This document shows, one piece after another, positions 218-9,514 of a stretch of 9,514 nt of DNA. How positions within the stretch are numbered: the first letter of the stretch is position 1; the number at the start of each line of letters is the position of its first letter. Where the stretch lies: the NCBI GenBank assembly GCA_964565125.1, contig CAZMCX010000010.1, positions 7,369 to 16,882 of the forward strand. Direction: 5' to 3'. A program made the translations under genes and the position numbers. The notes under the pieces are model-generated. The model was not told the origin of the DNA and made no database searches. It saw only the letters and a list, made by a program, of their open reading frames with translations. The DNA comes from an uncultured archaeon. Lineage in GTDB: Archaea > Iainarchaeota > Iainarchaeia > Iainarchaeales > 0-14-0-20-30-16.

Positions 218-289
218 TAGCTGTGGCGTGCGCTTGCTTACAGATATTAAAGATTGCTTTTTATATCTTATAGCTGTTATTTTTACATC

Positions 290-937
290 ATGGGGAACTT
301 ATATACCTCCTTTGCGCAATTTGAAAAAGCATATGAGAATGAAGTGAAAAAAATAAAATCTAAAGAGAAGAATGCTCTAGTTTTCTATTTTAGAAAAGGG
401 GGTCTTGTAAAAACCAAGTATACCCCTCAATTAAGAGTTACATATCCAAGTAAGCAAAAAGTTAAAGAAGAACTTGTAAATTTATCTGCAAGAAGGGCAG
501 AAACAATGATCAAACTTAAGGAATGGGGCAAGATAAAATATGATGCAGATAACTACCTTAAAAAAACAAAGAGAAAGAGATTTTTTGATTCTTTATATTG
601 GAAACATAAAATGAAATCTCTTACTGATAAAGATTATCGAGAAGAAATAAAAAAATTAAAAATTCCGATGGATTTGATGGCAGATCCAAAGTTAAAAAAG
701 ATATTACATGCTTTTATGACAAACCAAACATATAGAGAAACTGTAATTGATACTGTTGAAAATTCGGTAGTTTATAGAGACAAAGGTTTTGGAGAACAAA
801 TTCTACAGGCAATAGAAATAAAAAAAGGAATTTCAGAAAAGAAAATAACTCTGTTTTCTGAAGTTTTGCAAGGTATTGATAATCTAATCCTTGGCTACAA
901 AGTTATAAATAGGTGGGTAAGTGTTAACAAAGACTGA
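290..937 (+). CDS. Hypothetical lysine-rich protein (~215 aa from ATG 290; ORF track extends to TTG 254)
   Basis: Long ORF in the ORF track. ATG at 290 corresponds to residue 13 of the listed translation. No motif I recognise. Its 3' end overlaps the hel308 GTG start by 17 nt, suggesting co-transcription and coupling. Confidence 0.6.
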   Translation: MGNLYTSFAQFEKAYENEVKKIKSKEKNALVFYFRKGGLVKTKYTPQLRVTYPSKQKVKEELVNLSARRAETMIKLKEWGKIKYDADNYLKKTKRKRFFDSLYWKHKMKSLTDKDYREEIKKLKIPMDLMADPKLKKILHAFMTNQTYRETVIDTVENSVVYRDKGFGEQILQAIEIKKGISEKKITLFSEVLQGIDNLILGYKVINRWVSVNKD

Positions 938-4967: not shown

Positions 4968-5012
4968 ATAGATCTTATTTTTTGGTTATGAAAACATAAC
5001 TTATAATGATTT

Positions 5013-5017
5013 GGAGG
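5013..5017 (+). promoter_or_regulatory. Shine-Dalgarno-like ribosome binding site of the thermosome gene
   Basis: GGAGG (within GGAGGAG) lies 7 nt upstream of ATG 5025. It is the only strong SD in the window. Confidence 0.6.
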
Positions 5018-5024
5018 AGAGAAA

Positions 5025-6653
5025 ATGGCAGAAATGCAGAATCAGCAAAATGCGTTCTTGGAAGAGGGTGCAAAGAGAGTTAGAGGAAAAGATGCTCAAA
5101 GAATTAATATCTTGGTTGCGAGAGCAGTAGCTAACGCAGTTAGATCTACTTTGGGCCCAAAAGGAATGGACAAGATGATAGTTGACGAAATGGGGGATGT
5201 AACAATCTCAAATGATGGTGCAACTATTCTGAAAGAGATATCTATAGAACACCCAGTTGGGAAGATGATGGTTGACATTGCAAAAACTCAAGATACTGAG
5301 ATCGGGGACGGAACAACTACTGCGGTAGTGGTGGCTGGAGAGCTTCTTGCTGAGGCAGAAAAGCTTTTGGATAATGGAATACATCCTTCAAGTATAATTA
5401 ATGGTTATAGGTTGGCAACAACAAAAGCAATAGAATACTATAATGATATTTCTTACAAAGTTGACTATAAAGATGAAAAGAAATTATATAATATTGCAAT
5501 TACAGCTATGACTGGAAAGGCAGCGGAATCTTGTCAGAAATTAGCAAAACTTGTAATTGATGCAATTTCACAAATTATTGTTGTCGAAGATAACAAAATA
5601 ATTTATGATAATGATTATATAAAAATAGAAAAAAAATCAGGCGGAAGCTTAGAAGATAGTGAATTAATAAAAGGAATAGTAATAGATAAAGAAATAGTAA
5701 GTAATAGTATGCCAAAGAAAATAAACCTGGCAAAAATACTTCTTTTAGATGTTGCTTTGGAGATAAAAAGCCCAGAAACAGATACAAAAGTACAAATTAG
5801 TAGCCCAGATCAATTAGAGCAATTCTTAGAGCAAGAAGAAAGAATGATTTCTGATATGACTGAGAAAATAAAAGCATCCGGTGCAAATGTGGTAATTTGC
5901 CAAAAAGGAATTGATGATTTGGCCCAGCATTTCTTGACAGAAGCAGGAATTATTGCAATAAGAAGGGTAAAGAAATCAGATATCGATAAATTGTCAAAAG
6001 CAACAGGCGCAAAAGTTGCATCTAGAATAAAAGAAATAAATAAAACCTATTTAGGAAACGCAGATATAGTTCAAGAAAAGAAAATATCTGGTGAAGAGAT
6101 GGTATTTATTGAAGGCTGCAAAGATGCAAAGGCAGTAACGATATTTGTTCGGGGCGGAACAGATCATGTTGTAGATGAGGCAGAAAGAGCAATAGCTGAT
6201 GCTTTGGGTGCTGTAACTTCTGCATTAAAATCTGGCAAATATGTTGCTGGCGGCGGATCCTGTGAAATGGAAGTAGCGATAAGATTAAGGGATTATGCGA
6301 AGGAGATTGGCGGAAGAGAACAATTGGCAATAGATGCTTTTGCAAGTGCTTTAGAAATAATCCCGAGAACTTTAGCAGAATCTGCTGGAATGAATCCCTT
6401 AGATATGCTAGTTGCATTAAAGAACAGGCACAAGAAGGGGGAAATTGCTTCGGGCGTTGATGTATTGAATAGCACAATTGCTGATATGGAAAAGCTTAAT
6501 GTTATTGAACCAACAAACATAAAAGTTCAAGCAATAAATCTGGGATCTGAAGTATCTCAAATGATTCTGAGAATTGATGATATAATTGCAGGAAGCGGAA
6601 GATCCAAAGGCGGAATGCATAATATGCCACCGGGGATGGGGGATGCGGATTGA
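5025..6653 (+). CDS. ths: Thermosome subunit (group II chaperonin, Cpn60/TCP-1 family)
   Basis: 542 aa with classic motifs [26 protein letters not shown] and VAGGG, plus a Gly/Met-rich C-terminal tail [11 protein letters not shown]. Confidence 0.95.
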
Positions 6654-6670
6654 ATCCGTGATCCTTAACA

Positions 6671-6687
6671 TTTTTTTTATTTTTTTT
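6671..6687 (+). terminator. Oligo-T termination tract downstream of the thermosome gene
   Basis: Two T8 runs (6671-6678, 6680-6687) start 18 nt after the stop codon. They are preceded by a short inverted repeat CGGATT/AATCCG spanning the stop. Confidence 0.5.
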
Positions 6688-6739
6688 AAATTAACTGAAT
6701 CTAATTTTTCTTTCTTCTAAGGCTATGCTTGAATTTAAA

Positions 6740-7079
6740 TGGGGTCACAGGGACTCGAACCCTGGTCCGCAGGTTTCTCCCGAGCCTTTTAATAAAGGCT
6801 ACGCTCGCCAAAATTGGGCTCATCTTCGAGAAGTGGCTTCATGCCACTAAAATGCCGGCTTTTTTTGAAGCCGCTCGATAACCCTTATCTTGGCCTTACC
6901 TGCTAATATCATCATCGCTAATTTAACAAATTAGCTCCGTCTTCACGCTCTCTTTACCTAAAGTTGTAAATGCCATTTATGGCATCCTTTTTTCTTTTGG
7001 TGAACTTATGCTTTTCTTTTTTTGAAAAAGAAAAGATTGCGACTGGAGCCTGAAGTGCTAGCCGCTACACTATGACCCC
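6740..7079 (-). tRNA. trnW: tRNA-Trp (anticodon CCA) with a ~268-nt intron between positions 37 and 38
   Basis: Folded by hand. 5' exon 7079-7043: GGGGTCA TA GTGT AGCGGCTA GCAC T TCAGG CTCCAG. 3' exon 6774-6740: A CCTGC GGAC CAGGG TTCGAGT CCCTG TGACCCC A. Seven-bp acceptor stem, A14, G18G19, A21, T54T55C56, A58 and archaeal-type discriminator A73 are present. No encoded CCA. One U27-C43 mismatch. Anticodon CCA at 7046-7044. Confidence 0.85.
6775..7042 (-). ncRNA. tRNA-Trp intron; candidate stable or circular intron-derived RNA
   Basis: Canonical hBHBh' motif. The anticodon stem is followed by a 4-bp helix C32-C35 (CTCC) paired with intron GGAG (6780-6777). This helix is flanked by 3-nt bulges A36-G37-T and A-A-A38, then a 2-bp outer helix CG/CG. 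Perfect hairpins on the minus strand: 7011-7035 (11 bp), 6970-6985 (6 bp), 6917-6935 (8 bp), 6856-6873 (6 bp), 6832-6848 (6 bp), 6783-6800 (7 bp). C-box-like AUGAUGA at 6915-6909. Confidence 0.75.
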
Positions 7080-7106
7080 CATTTAATAATAAAAAAGTAG
7101 AGATAA

Positions 7107-7115
7107 TTTAATAAA
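7107..7115 (-). promoter_or_regulatory. Candidate TATA box for tRNA-Trp
   Basis: The minus strand reads TTTATTAAA, centred ~32 nt upstream of the mature tRNA 5' end (7079). This is consistent with a ~5-nt leader. Confidence 0.4.
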
Positions 7116-7121
7116 GAAGTG

Positions 7122-7568
7122 TTACTTTTTAGGAGAAAAGCCCCAAATCTCGTCACCAACATAATGCAGATTCTTTATTACTTTCCCTTTATCCATGGCC
7201 TTGATTTCTGTTGAGCTATACATTGCAAGACCCAAAGCAAGATTTTTCTTGTGCTCTGCATCCGCAATAAAAACTGAGCTTTCTTTGGGAAACTCCTCTA
7301 CAGATATAATCCCTGGACGCATTAAGTCAGCACCTTTAACAACAAAAGGAATTGCACCTTTGTCTACATAAACATGTGGAAAAATAAGTGTGGTATTTTT
7401 TAGAGTGGGGTATATTGTCCCCCCAAGTTCAAAAAGCATTGGTACCCCATTTTGTAAAAATAAGTTTCTTGCTTTTTGGACTCGGTCTTTCACATCAAAA
7501 GAAATTTTGTATTTGGAAATTTTTTTGTTTAATTCTTTTATTTCTTTTTTGCTTAAAGTCTGTAACAT
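7122..7568 (-). CDS. PUA-domain RNA-binding protein (archaeal MCT-1/Tma20-like, pre-PUA plus PUA)
   Basis: 148 aa. The central and C-terminal segment DKGAIPFVVKGADLMRPGI resembles the PUA-domain GAxxMxPG signature. Size matches stand-alone archaeal PUA proteins. Confidence 0.7.
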   Translation of the reverse strand: MLQTLSKKEIKELNKKISKYKISFDVKDRVQKARNLFLQNGVPMLFELGGTIYPTLKNTTLIFPHVYVDKGAIPFVVKGADLMRPGIISVEEFPKESSVFIADAEHKKNLALGLAMYSSTEIKAMDKGKVIKNLHYVGDEIWGFSPKK

Positions 7569-7598: not shown

Positions 7599-7607
7599 TT
7601 TTATATA
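7599..7607 (+). promoter_or_regulatory. Candidate TATA box for the deaminase gene (leaderless geometry)
   Basis: TTTTATATA is centred ~26 nt upstream of ATG 7629, with no SD. Confidence 0.4.
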
Positions 7608-7628
7608 TTGTAACGCCTTATATTTTGC

Positions 7629-8096
7629 ATGTACGAAAAAAAATATATGTTAATGGCTATTGATGAAGCAAAGAAGGCAGTAAAAAACAAACATGGCGGA
7701 CCTTTTGGCGCTGTACTTCTTGTTGACGGAAAGATATTTAAAGCACATAATATGGTTTTGAAAGACCATGATCCTACTAGGCACGCAGAAATAAGAGTTA
7801 TTTCTAAGTGTTGTAAAAAACTAAAGAAAGAAAAACTGAAAAATGCAGTTTTATACTCTTCTACGGAACCTTGTCCTATGTGTTTATCTGCAATCCATTG
7901 GGCTGGAATTAACACAGTATATTATTCTACAGAAATTGAAGATGCAGACAAAGCAGGATTTGATGAAATTAATTTGCATGCAAAAGAAATAATTAAAATT
8001 GCAAAATTAAAAATGAAAGTCCAAGGCGGCTTAGAACGAGAAAAAGGATTAGAAGTATTTGAATTATTGAAAAAAATTAAATTAAAGAGATATTAA
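7629..8096 (+). CDS. CDA-fold zinc deaminase, GuaD-like (probable guanine deaminase; nucleoside/nucleotide deaminase family)
   Basis: 155 aa. Zinc motifs HAE (DPTRHAEI) and PCPMC (STEPCPMCLSAIHWAG). GGPFGAV near the N-terminus and DADKAGFD after the zinc site closely resemble Bacillus subtilis GuaD as I remember it. TadA-type or dCMP deaminase cannot be excluded without alignment. Confidence 0.75.
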   Translation: MYEKKYMLMAIDEAKKAVKNKHGGPFGAVLLVDGKIFKAHNMVLKDHDPTRHAEIRVISKCCKKLKKEKLKNAVLYSSTEPCPMCLSAIHWAGINTVYYSTEIEDADKAGFDEINLHAKEIIKIAKLKMKVQGGLEREKGLEVFELLKKIKLKRY

Positions 8097-8116
8097 ATTC
8101 CGAGGGCTTCTCTTAC

Positions 8117-8126
8117 TTTTCTTTTT
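8117..8126 (+). terminator. Oligo-T tract after the deaminase gene
   Basis: TTTTCTTTTT lies ~20 nt after the stop codon in the 37-nt convergent gap. Confidence 0.4.
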
Positions 8127-8133
8127 GTAAGAT

Positions 8134-8373
8134 CTAAAGTGTATTTTCCTCTGTTAAGTAAACCTTTCTTTGTGGCCCTTTTTCTCTTGGCGCACGAAAT
8201 CTATTATTTTTAATTTTGATTGCGGATTCTAATAATGAGTGCATTAGTTCTTTGCTTGCTCCTTGTTGTCTTGCACTTTCTAGAATAGATTTTAATCTTA
8301 GATCTACAGAATTAGTTTGTTTTCTTCTTAAAATGCTTTCAAGATGTCTTTCTGGTTTGTATGGTTTGGGCAT
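8134..8373 (-). CDS. Small basic hypothetical protein (79 aa) coupled to the GGDEF gene
   Basis: The ATG starts 1 nt after the upstream TAA stop (minus strand TAA-T-ATG). It contains three similar helical segments: HLESILRR, LKSILESARQ, HSLLESAIK. No recognised domain. Confidence 0.5.
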   Translation of the reverse strand: MPKPYKPERHLESILRRKQTNSVDLRLKSILESARQQGASKELMHSLLESAIKIKNNRFRAPREKGPQRKVYLTEENTL

Positions 8374-8374
8374 A

Positions 8375-9268
8375 TTAACGCCTTGCTTCTTTCATTCTTG
8401 CTTTGTTTTCTTTCATTCTTGTATCTGCTCTGTCTCTTAAATTAAGGATATACCTGTCAATTTCTCTTTTGTCATTGTTAGTTAATTGATTATACCTTGC
8501 TAATGAATTAACAGTTACTGGGCCTTTTTCTAAAGACATAGTGTGCCCTACAGCAAAGGATATTTCGGGAATATTAATTTGTGCAACTTCTAGGGCTTTA
8601 GTAACTCTGTGTCTCTTTTCGTTCCAAATTTTTTTTGCAATCCTTGTCAAATGTTCTACAAATCTGGTTACTACTTTCTCATATCTTTGATTTTTCCGTC
8701 TTGGCATACTAAGTAGAATTTCAAATTCATCTCCACCAGTTCTTGCCATTGTGAATTTTATGTCTGATTTATCATATAGTTTTGCTAACTCAACACCCAT
8801 CTGGCCCATAGTTCTTAAATAATTGTCACCTAAGCTGTGAGAGATAGAATCGTTTATTTTCTTTAAATTATTCATATCTATAACAAAGTAGGAAAAAACC
8901 CTGTCTGAATTTGTAACATAATGCCTTATCCTATTGTTGAAAGCGTCTTTGTTTAACAGGCCAGTAGTTTTGTCTCTTTCTGCCATAGCAGTAATAATAC
9001 CTAAATTTTTTGTAACTAAACGAGGATATGCTTGATCAAATTCTCTTAAAAACTCGTGTGCCCCCCCTTCCTTTGCTCTTTCTCGTAGTTCAGGGTAATT
9101 TAGGGCCATTCTTTCTAATAATTGTGCTCTTCCCATGGGGGTATTTAATGGTTGTTTTCTTCTATCTAACTCTACTACGCCGTGTTCAGGAATAATCGAC
9201 CTTGTTGTTCTTCGTTCATAATGTCTTAAATTAGGACTTACTTTCACCAATTTCCTTACTTTTGCCAT
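8375..9268 (-). CDS. GGDEF-domain protein (putative diguanylate cyclase) with an uncharacterised ~95-aa N-terminal region
   Basis: 297 aa. Linker TTGLLNKDAFNN. Motif VIDMNNLKKINDSISHSLGDNYL matches the GGDEF-domain consensus DxDxFKxINDxxGHxxGD. Intact RTGGDEF (GGDEF codons 8723-8737). C-terminal LRDRADTRMKENKA matches the ADxAmYxAK helix. The domain spans roughly 8414-8971. Confidence 0.85.
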   Translation of the reverse strand: MAKVRKLVKVSPNLRHYERRTTRSIIPEHGVVELDRRKQPLNTPMGRAQLLERMALNYPELRERAKEGGAHEFLREFDQAYPRLVTKNLGIITAMAERDKTTGLLNKDAFNNRIRHYVTNSDRVFSYFVIDMNNLKKINDSISHSLGDNYLRTMGQMGVELAKLYDKSDIKFTMARTGGDEFEILLSMPRRKNQRYEKVVTRFVEHLTRIAKKIWNEKRHRVTKALEVAQINIPEISFAVGHTMSLEKGPVTVNSLARYNQLTNNDKREIDRYILNLRDRADTRMKENKARMKEARR

Positions 9269-9298: not shown

Positions 9299-9381
9299 GA
9301 TTTCTATGATATAAAATGTATAAATTACTAGAATATAAGTATGCTTGAGCATAGCGAAACATACTGTTTTTGGGCAACTTA

Positions 9382-9400
9382 CCCTTTTTTTAAAAAAGGG
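9382..9400. repeat. Perfect T-run/A-run palindrome just upstream of tRNA-Gly
   Basis: CCCTTTTTT-T-AAAAAAGGG ends 4 nt before the tRNA 5' end. Confidence 0.5.
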
Positions 9401-9404
9401 CAGA

Positions 9405-9476
9405 GCGGTTGTGATGTAACGGTTAGCATAATGGCCTTCCAAGCCATTCGTTCGGGTTCGAATCCCGGCGACCGCA
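9405..9476 (+). tRNA. trnG: tRNA-Gly (anticodon UCC), intronless
   Basis: Folded by hand: GCGGTTG TG ATGT AACGGTTA GCAT A ATGGC CTTCCAA GCCAT TCGT TCGGG TTCGAAT CCCGG CGACCGC A. 72 nt. G18G19, TTCGAAT T-loop and discriminator A73 are present. No encoded CCA. Confidence 0.93.
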
Positions 9477-9484
9477 TTTCTAAG

Positions 9485-9514
9485 CTTTTTCTTTCTTAAA
9501 AAGAAAGGAAAAAG
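9485..9514 (+). terminator. T-rich hairpin or bidirectional oligo-T element downstream of tRNA-Gly (truncated by window end)
   Basis: CTTTTTCTTTCTT-AAA-AAGAAAG(G)AAAAAG forms a ~13-bp stem with one bulged G. It starts 9 nt after the tRNA 3' end. Confidence 0.4.

Follow-up and report, generated by a model that had tools for sequence, protein, structure and literature searches.

A 268-nucleotide bulge-helix-bulge intron with a guide-like core in the tRNA-Trp gene of an uncultured Iainarchaeota archaeon

Does a tRNA gene whose anticodon arm is interrupted by 268 nucleotides (nt) still yield a tRNA, and of what does the interrupting sequence consist? We addressed these questions for the tRNA-Trp(CCA) gene on a 9,514-nt stretch of contig CAZMCX010000010.1, called the window in the following (coordinates are window positions unless another locus is named). 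Archaeal tRNA introns are tabulated at 11-129 nt, with a median of 65 nt for tRNA-Trp (PMC4090602), and an archaeal tRNA intron of 121 nt has been described as 'unusually long' (PMC4307357), which agrees with the original prediction that the length of this intron lies outside the usual range. Our analysis points to a gene that probably works, is transcribed as one 340-nt precursor and carries, between nt 37 and 38 of the tRNA, a 268-nt bulge-helix-bulge (BHB) intron composed of three layers.

The tRNA-Trp gene and its splice sites

With introns allowed (ARAGORN -i), the window yielded a tRNA-Trp with anticodon CCA and a 268-nt intron at c[6740,7079], and a purpose-written BHB scanner detected a strict 3-4-3 BHB motif exactly at 37/38. 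The coordinates and junctions originally predicted for a tRNA-Trp(CCA) split at this site were correct. The minus strand of 6740-7079 reads GGGGUCAUAGUGUAGCGGCUAGCACUUCAGGCUCCAG, 268 nt of intron (6775..7042, canonical 37/38 site) and ACCUGCGGACCAGGGUUCGAGUCCCUGUGACCCCA. Exon 1 (7043..7079) comprises nt 1-37 with the anticodon at 7044-7046 and is identical in three relatives (L003, L017 and L018, introduced below); exon 2 (6740..6774) comprises nt 38-73 with the discriminator A73 at 6740. To judge from its position, 36 to 28 nt upstream of the mature 5' end, TTTATTAAA (7107..7115, minus strand) is likely the TATA box of this gene. Default ARAGORN (no introns) and an Rfam scan at gathering thresholds saw only the tRNA-Gly at 9405-9476 in the window and missed tRNA-Trp; a genome annotated in this way would therefore seem to lack this tRNA.

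The BHB motif consists of CUCC (nt 32-35) paired with GGAG between the bulges AGU and AAA. Its 5' strand (7040..7048, minus strand) contains CUCC at 7045-7048, the bulge A36 G37 U at 7042-7044 and the inner CG at 7040-7041, while its 3' strand (6774..6782, minus strand) contains the inner CG at 6781-6782, GGAG at 6777-6780 and the bulge A A A38 at 6774-6776. Cleavage is predicted between 7043 and 7042 at the 5' splice site and between 6775 and 6774 at the 3' splice site. Of the flanking helices, the outer one has 4 base pairs (bp) plus U27.C43, and the inner one has just 2 bp (CG/CG), stacked beside a hairpin termed H_last. The description as a textbook hBHBh' structure holds for the 3-4-3 motif with its CUCC/GGAG helix, and less clearly for the flanking helices. 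The 72-nt RNA obtained by in silico splicing was folded into a cloverleaf by ARAGORN, with U27.C43 as its sole flaw; this mismatch contradicts the earlier view that the tRNA fold is fully canonical. Among 200 dinucleotide-preserving shuffles of the window (1.9 Mb), which served as random background, ARAGORN made a single call, a low false-positive rate. Nested BHB introns were also scanned for and rejected, because the scanner returned A/U-rich chance matches only.

Orthologous loci were located through the neighbouring thermosome and PUA genes and through one scan of metagenomes with exon 1. The tRNA-Trp locus was retrieved seven times (L017, L018, L002, L016, L003, L021 and L022), giving seven distinct loci including the window, four of them with long introns. 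Introns of the relatives all occupied the same site as in the window. They measured 269 nt in L017 (99% identical to the window and from an independent assembly, a JGI contig), 213 nt in L018, 385 nt in both L002 and L016 (identical in two separate assemblies), 88 nt in L003 (Candidatus Iainarchaeum sp.), 90 nt in L021 and 105 nt in L022. The presence of the same gene in the independent L017 and the identity of L002 and L016 excluded an assembly chimera, an outcome that the original prediction had named as refuting it. Intron length is highly labile inside this one small clade. Additional look-ups brought no further lineage (P0072 represented the L018 population and P0058 was a 2-kb contig), and the PUA-gene neighbourhoods of the more distant relatives L024-L028 contained no tRNA-Trp, synteny being lost.

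Spliced tRNAs were near-identical across the seven loci, and one compensatory change was found in the acceptor stem (C6-G67 to U6-A67). The small number of differences together with this compensatory change argues for a functional gene. The end of the intron (CGGGAGA) was invariant in the window, L017, L018 and L002. The short-intron relatives do not have a strict BHB (three of four central pairs). In L021, ARAGORN mistook the tRNA-Trp at 1041-1204 (90-nt intron) for a tRNA-Arg(CCT) and shifted its intron.

A guide-like core between two expansion blocks

A central module of ~57 nt was common to all seven introns. In the window it covers 6951-6895 on the minus strand and begins with antisense element 1 (AGAGCGUGAAGA, 6940..6951), complementary to tRNA nt 25-34 except for one G.G mismatch. 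This is followed by a D'-like box, CGGA (6936..6939), invariant in seven of seven loci; by hairpin H3 (GCUAAUUU-GUU-AAAUUAGC, 6917..6935), recognized from folds and alignment; by a C'-like box, GAUGAUGA (6909..6916), conserved at all loci as RUGAYGA; and by antisense element 2 (UAUUAGCAGGUAAG, 6895..6908), whose GCAGGU pairs with tRNA nt 38-43. Both antisense elements are used in the predicted minimum free energy (MFE) structure of the precursor. An internal C'/D' motif, in which CGGA and GAUGAUGA are joined by an 8-bp hairpin, is accordingly present, with a D' box that differs from CUGA at position 2. From CGGA, the hairpin and (GAU)GA-UGA we infer a kink-turn (K-turn) of box C'/D' type with tandem G.A pairs followed by U.G and G-C, in which CGGA would form the non-bulged strand and H3 the canonical stem. 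This reading is supported by the invariance of the boxes and by an entirely different hairpin (GUUUAG-GAAA-CUAAAC) that fills the slot of H3 in L021 and L022.

The classical archaeal tRNA-Trp intron is a box C/D RNA that guides the formation of Cm34 and Um39 (PMC4090602, PMC3326292). The original prediction had set the window intron apart from this type; judged by its sequence elements, however, the central ~57 nt descend from, or are homologous to, the guide module of the classical introns, in degenerate form. In L021 and L022, the match is of textbook quality: element 1 forms a duplex with nt 31-40 (UGGAGCG, directly before CGGA, with G31-G37 and beyond), in which the fifth nucleotide upstream of the box (N+5 rule) faces C34. 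In the window lineage (window, L017, L003, L018 and L002), six extra nt (UGAAGR) lie between GAGCG and CGGA, the best duplex involves nt 25-34 and the N+5 position is C28, not C34. Element 2 can pair with nt 38-43 in every locus but L003, in which only GCAGG (5 bp) is pairable and was not picked by the automated register search; yet no D box is found at the spacing needed for a guide of nt 39. Canonical terminal C and D boxes were rejected as a candidate feature after a search by hand had found none in seven of seven loci, circularly permuted readings included, and no Rfam C/D family matched the intron at E <= 10. Because the window module lacks two defining features, we did not file it as a canonical box C/D guide. 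Given that the guide geometry is off C34 in the window lineage, the module is probably a degenerate or re-purposed guide or chaperone.

At nt 27/43 (7053 and 6769), G27-C43 of L021 and L022 is replaced by U27.C43 in the lineage of the window. This U27 matches an A within the lineage-specific portion of element 1, but breaks the 27-43 pair, which may reflect co-variation between exon and intron.

The precursor MFE structure was the guide-duplex form in every locus, in which the intron pairs with both strands of the anticodon stem. The BHB conformer, when imposed on the fold, was less stable by 8.0 kcal/mol in the window and by 3.4 to 15.3 kcal/mol over all loci. The pre-tRNA-Trp of Haloferax and Pyrococcus reportedly also has a guide and a BHB conformer, a resemblance that is not a test of the present case.

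Compared with L003, the window has gained ~210 nt in two expansion blocks that flank the core, one of 91 nt on the 5' side (7042-6952) and one of 120 nt on the 3' side (6894-6775). The 5' block opens with H1, a U-run/A-run hairpin (CUUUUCUUUUUC/AAAAAGAAAAG, 7011..7035, minus strand as for all following intron elements) that was found in folds and is present also in L018, L002 and L022. It continues with segment A2 (CAUAAGUUCACCAAAAGAAAAAA, 6988..7010), of which 21 nt are identical to L002 7335-7315 in the 3' flank of tRNA-Trp, and with hairpin H2 (GGAUGCCAU/AUGGCAUUU, 6968..6987), identified by alignment and fold in a version specific to the window and L017. The 3' block contains a closed domain (6807..6894) that is shared with L018 and L002, in which the closing stem GCCAAGAU/AAUUUUGGC encloses the stem GGGUUAUC/GAUGAGCCC and two apical hairpins. 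Then follow H_last (AGCCUUUAUUAAAAGGCU, 6783..6800), seen in alignment and folds next to the 3' splice site and with a homologous hairpin in L021, and CGGGAGAA.

Both expansions folded much better than shuffled sequences (z of -3.9 and -4.2; 3' domain alone -4.2), with a value of -0.7 for the core. When the introns of relatives were compared for covariation, as suggested in the original prediction, the stem GGGUUAUC/GAUGAGCCC showed two compensatory pairs in L002 (AU to GC and UA to CG). The closing stem of the 3' domain showed wobble changes only. Counted over alignable columns only, a measure that is biased upward, intron identity was 74-79%; third codon positions in the neighbouring PUA gene were 41-62% identical. 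The blocks of the window, L018 and L002 vary by whole hairpins, with ~150 extra nt within the H_last loop of L002, and are absent from L003, L021 and L022 with their introns of 88-105 nt. The expansion blocks thus appear structured and partly conserved, but dispensable and recycled. Most likely they are tolerated insertions, kept well folded so that both splice sites still meet.

Several other candidate features of the intron were rejected. An Rfam search of 6650-7150 at E <= 10 gave no meaningful intron match; its best match, Plasmodium RUF1, was dismissed as an A/T artefact on the opposite strand. A small open reading frame (ORF; 22 codons, read by eye) is broken by indels in the relatives. 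A second K-turn in the 3' domain was discarded because covariation supports Watson-Crick pairing of AUC/GAU there, and a long-range helix CCAAAA/UUUUGG proposed by RNAalifold was discarded since its 3' strand pairs better locally with GCCAA. The H_last loop UUUAUUAAAA was not retained as a promoter of exon 2 owing to its wrong spacing and to a motif count in the window no higher than chance. Viral contigs scanned with three intron motifs gave no matches.

Origin of the additional sequence and competing explanations

Both ends of the intron resemble sequences that adjoin tRNA genes. H1 and A2 together matched the region directly downstream of the L002 tRNA-Trp (84% over 49 nt, E 2.7e-6) and resemble a hairpin located 3' of tRNA-Gly, both at 9484-9514 of the window and in L018. 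Within the last ~35 nt of the intron (AUUUUGGCGAGCGUAGCCUUUAUUAAAAGGCUCG), 6784-6814 shares 88% identity with the final part of a 69-nt insertion at the tRNA-Gly of L018. The same architecture recurs just upstream of tRNA-Gly (window 9367-9403; L018) and of tRNA-Ser (L002), and once more in L002, where it closes a 69-nt insertion framed by two 40-nt copies of the tRNA-Ser 3' end. The intron thus seems to open with a module typical of tRNA 3' flanks and to close with one typical of the region upstream of tRNAs.

The tRNA flanks themselves showed further features. The 3' flank of the window tRNA-Gly (9477-9514, plus strand) carries a U-run/A-run hairpin (CTTTTTCTTTCTT/AAGAAAGGAAAAAG) that is cut by the window end and is near-identical to the one after the L002 tRNA-Trp and to H1. 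A module TTTTTGGGCAACTTACCC-TTTTTTTAAAAAA-GGGCAG (window 9367-9403, plus strand; L018 1155-1119; L002 10957-10992) stops 1-2 nt short of the mature tRNA-Gly 5' end (tRNA-Ser in L002) and carries a U7 run, though at the place expected for a leader or promoter. The 69-nt insertions lie directly after intact tRNAs (L018 977-1045, minus strand, tRNA-Gly; L002 11097-11165, tRNA-Ser) and are bounded by direct repeats of the tRNA 3' end, of 19 nt (TCGAATCCCGGCGGCCGCA) in L018 and of 40 nt including flank in L002, an att-like signature, as left by very small elements upon integration or recombination. The tRNA-Trp 3' end also occurs as a 15-nt partial copy (TGGGGTTACAGGGAC, displayed strand) in L022 (~1796-1810) and L023 (781-795), ~90 nt past the real 3' end of the gene.

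These similarities suggest that small tRNA-associated insertions or recombination inflated an ancestral guide intron of ~90 nt, which would be a more economical explanation than a split gene. The mobile-element model of tRNA gene disruption (PMC3293823) is a parallel. A more far-reaching version holds that the blocks are copies of a family of small tRNA-associated elements, mobile or spread by recombination, and that the locus is a tRNA gene being pulled apart, which we regard as quite improbable. If it were true, the same family would leave 69-nt insertions between duplicated tRNA 3' ends, the ancestral 88-nt guide intron would have gained two modules, a tRNA-terminator-like one behind exon 1 and a tRNA-upstream-like one ahead of exon 2, and the locus would represent an intermediate from intron-containing to split tRNA genes. 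Nanoarchaeum, which has split tRNA genes, belongs to the same superphylum as the host of the window.

As the likely course of events at the tRNA-Trp gene we propose the following. In the first layer of the intron, the 5' UCG, the 3' hairpin and CGGGAGAA would build the 3-4-3 BHB with the anticodon loop. The second would be the guide-derived K-turn of ~57 nt (CGGA, hairpin, GAUGAUGA), with one antisense flank for each strand of the anticodon arm, and the third the blocks of 91 and 120 nt with hairpins related to tRNA-flanking modules and to the small tRNA-associated insertions. The nascent precursor would first adopt the thermodynamically favoured guide conformer, in which the intron holds both anticodon-stem strands and the K-turn may be bound by L7Ae and possibly also by Nop5-fibrillarin. 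The RNA would then switch into the BHB conformer, be cleaved by the splicing endonuclease at 7043|7042 and 6775|6774, and an RtcB-type ligase would join the exons and circularise the 268-nt intron.

Some points weigh against this proposal. Splicing, circularisation, protein binding to the K-turn and methylation are steps that we infer. The inner helix of the BHB is merely 2 bp long, the best duplex of the window lineage contains one mismatch and points to C28, and the window has neither CUGA after element 2 nor a C box before element 1. Seven distinct loci, four with long introns, make for thin covariation statistics. Conservation above the synonymous level and covariation could also mean that the expansion blocks are functional, not merely tolerated.

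The last point leads to the reading in which the blocks are cargo, that is a new structured RNA domain released in a stable circular ribonucleoprotein of 268 nt, whose own function would go beyond that of the ancestral guide. Circularisation as such is expected of any excised BHB intron and is not special to the one in the window. The good folding of the blocks relative to shuffles and the higher conservation of alignable columns than of synonymous sites agree with the cargo or novel stable RNA of the original prediction, as do the compensatory pairs in GGGUUAUC/GAUGAGCCC, beside a closing stem that varies by wobble only, and the unusual stability of tRNA-Trp intron circles in Haloferax and Sulfolobus (PMC3326292). 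However, L003, L021 and L022 do without the blocks while their tRNA is essentially the same, whole hairpins were gained or lost among the window, L018 and L002 (268, 213 and 385 nt), the block sequences are recycled from tRNA-flank modules, no Rfam family matched, and the conservation figure is inflated by the restriction to alignable columns. We therefore consider a cargo function rather unlikely.

Three further explanations were weighed. In a cis-split or splitting gene, the U-tract of H1 would terminate exon 1, exon 2 would have its own upstream module and the halves would be joined in trans via the BHB as in Nanoarchaeum equitans. The order of modules is as expected for two half genes: the start of the intron is a copy of the hairpin module that trails tRNA genes, and its end corresponds to the module that precedes the 5' ends of tRNA-Gly and tRNA-Ser and duplicated tRNA 3' fragments; split tRNAs moreover exist in another DPANN lineage (PMC3218864). 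Yet the U5 of H1 is unconvincing as a terminator because runs of T5 or more are common inside coding regions (3.2 per kb, sense strand). The upstream module is unlike the TATA boxes of protein genes (TTTATATA type), and its A/T loop at -22 to -13 is too near to start transcription before exon 2. The 2-bp inner helix would be poor for association in trans, and the conserved guide core in the middle of the intron favours read-through transcription, so that a split gene seems very unlikely to us. That the gene is dead, disrupted by an insertion, with a fortuitous BHB and another tRNA-Trp doing the work, could be argued from the U27.C43 mismatch and from the likeness of the extra blocks to insertion remnants at other tRNA genes. 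Against it stand near-identical exons beside neighbouring proteins that are 62-87% identical, the compensatory acceptor-stem change, a BHB that is strictest precisely in the long-intron lineage and invariant intron ends, which together make a dead gene extremely unlikely. Least credible, with next to no weight in our view, is that the anticodon loop holds a self-splicing intron of group I (or group II), comparable to the ~250-nt bacterial tRNA introns. Size and anticodon-loop site do resemble the group I introns of cyanobacterial tRNAs (PMC8450103), but the host is archaeal, the BHB is perfect, no Rfam intron family matched 6650-7150 even at E <= 10 and the homologues of 88 nt are too short for ribozymes.

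Host, significance and comparison with known systems

The window has a G+C content of ~32% and encodes, next to the tRNA genes, a Hel308-type helicase, a U32 peptidase, a thermosome, a PUA/DUF1947 protein, a dCMP deaminase and a GGDEF protein. The nearest genomic relatives of the thermosome were from an uncultured archaeon metagenome-assembled genome (94%) and Candidatus Iainarchaeum sp. (85%), and named database matches were to Iainarchaeum / Diapherotrites. The neighbouring genes and these closest named relatives place the host, by sequence, among the Iainarchaeota of the DPANN archaea. L002 is the closest relative of the window by its thermosome (5001-6626, 94% amino acid (aa) identity), but the most distant one by the adjacent PUA protein (7868-8314, 62% aa identity, 41% at third codon positions), a discord that may stem from recombination or transfer in the surroundings of the tRNA locus. 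The GGDEF (diguanylate cyclase) domain protein of 297 aa (8375-9268, minus strand) is kept in L018; to our knowledge, cyclic di-GMP signalling is uncommon in archaea. ORFs of 227 aa (254-937, plus strand), 104 aa (7601-7915, minus strand) and 79 aa (8134-8373, minus strand) were without Pfam match; the first of these shares 17 nt with the start of the helicase gene.

The intron widens the known size range of protein-spliced tRNA introns by a factor of two to three, a point of relevance to genome annotation. The series of 88, 213, 268 and 385 nt in one small clade represents a natural experiment on how far a BHB intron can grow while remaining spliceable. It also bears on the decay or re-targeting of the tRNA-Trp methylation guide and on whether tRNA-flank modules and mini-insertions feed intron growth, and thereby on the origin of split tRNA genes.

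Among known systems, the classical box C/D intron of pre-tRNA-Trp (105 nt in Haloferax volcanii; Pyrococcus), which acts as guide for Cm34 and Um39 and forms a stable circle, interrupts the same tRNA at the same 37/38 BHB position. We compared the Haloferax and Pyrococcus introns through reviews. The order of elements is the same (antisense to the 5' exon, D'-type box, C'-type box, antisense to the 3' exon), the N+5 rule likewise reaches C34 in L021 and L022, and guide duplexes and BHB are mutually exclusive conformers, as they are said to be in Haloferax and Pyrococcus. The window differs from the classical intron in its length (268 versus ~60-105 nt), in the absence of terminal C and D boxes, in a D' box that is CGGA and not CUGA, in an 8-bp hairpin joining D' and C', in a 6-nt shift that puts the predicted target at C28, in the absence of a D box after the second antisense element and in the absence of an Rfam C/D match.

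The tRNA-Trp intron of Sulfolobus solfataricus (65 nt, without consensus boxes, with two 7-bp antisense stretches complementary around nt 34 and 39; PMC3326292) likewise combines degenerate boxes with double antisense to the anticodon arm, and demonstrates that box-poor tRNA-Trp introns exist beyond Euryarchaeota. It is four times shorter and has no expansion blocks, whereas the window appears to keep a good K-turn signature. With the 121-nt tRNA-Asp intron of Aeropyrum pernix (PMC4307357) and the introns at the maximum of the tabulated range (PMC4090602), the window intron shares the BHB at a canonical position and the lack of an ORF. It is 2.1 times as long as the tabulated maximum of 129 nt, and the L002 intron 3 times. 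No longer archaeal tRNA introns and no DPANN tRNA-Trp introns were reported in the literature searched, although absence there is not proof. The disrupted tRNA-Thr of Caldiarchaeum subterraneum (PMC3293823) and the split tRNAs of Nanoarchaeum resemble the present case in the partial tRNA copies and small insertions adjoining tRNA genes, and the sharing of intron material with tRNA-adjacent insertions recalls tRNA disruption by mobile elements. The window differs from such disruption in that there is no recombinase gene, the insertions are merely 69 nt long, the material lies inside an existing intron and the gene is contiguous. What is known, then, is the tRNA-Trp intron that joins BHB and guide; what is new is its two- to three-fold expansion by recycled hairpin modules and the shifted register of the guide.

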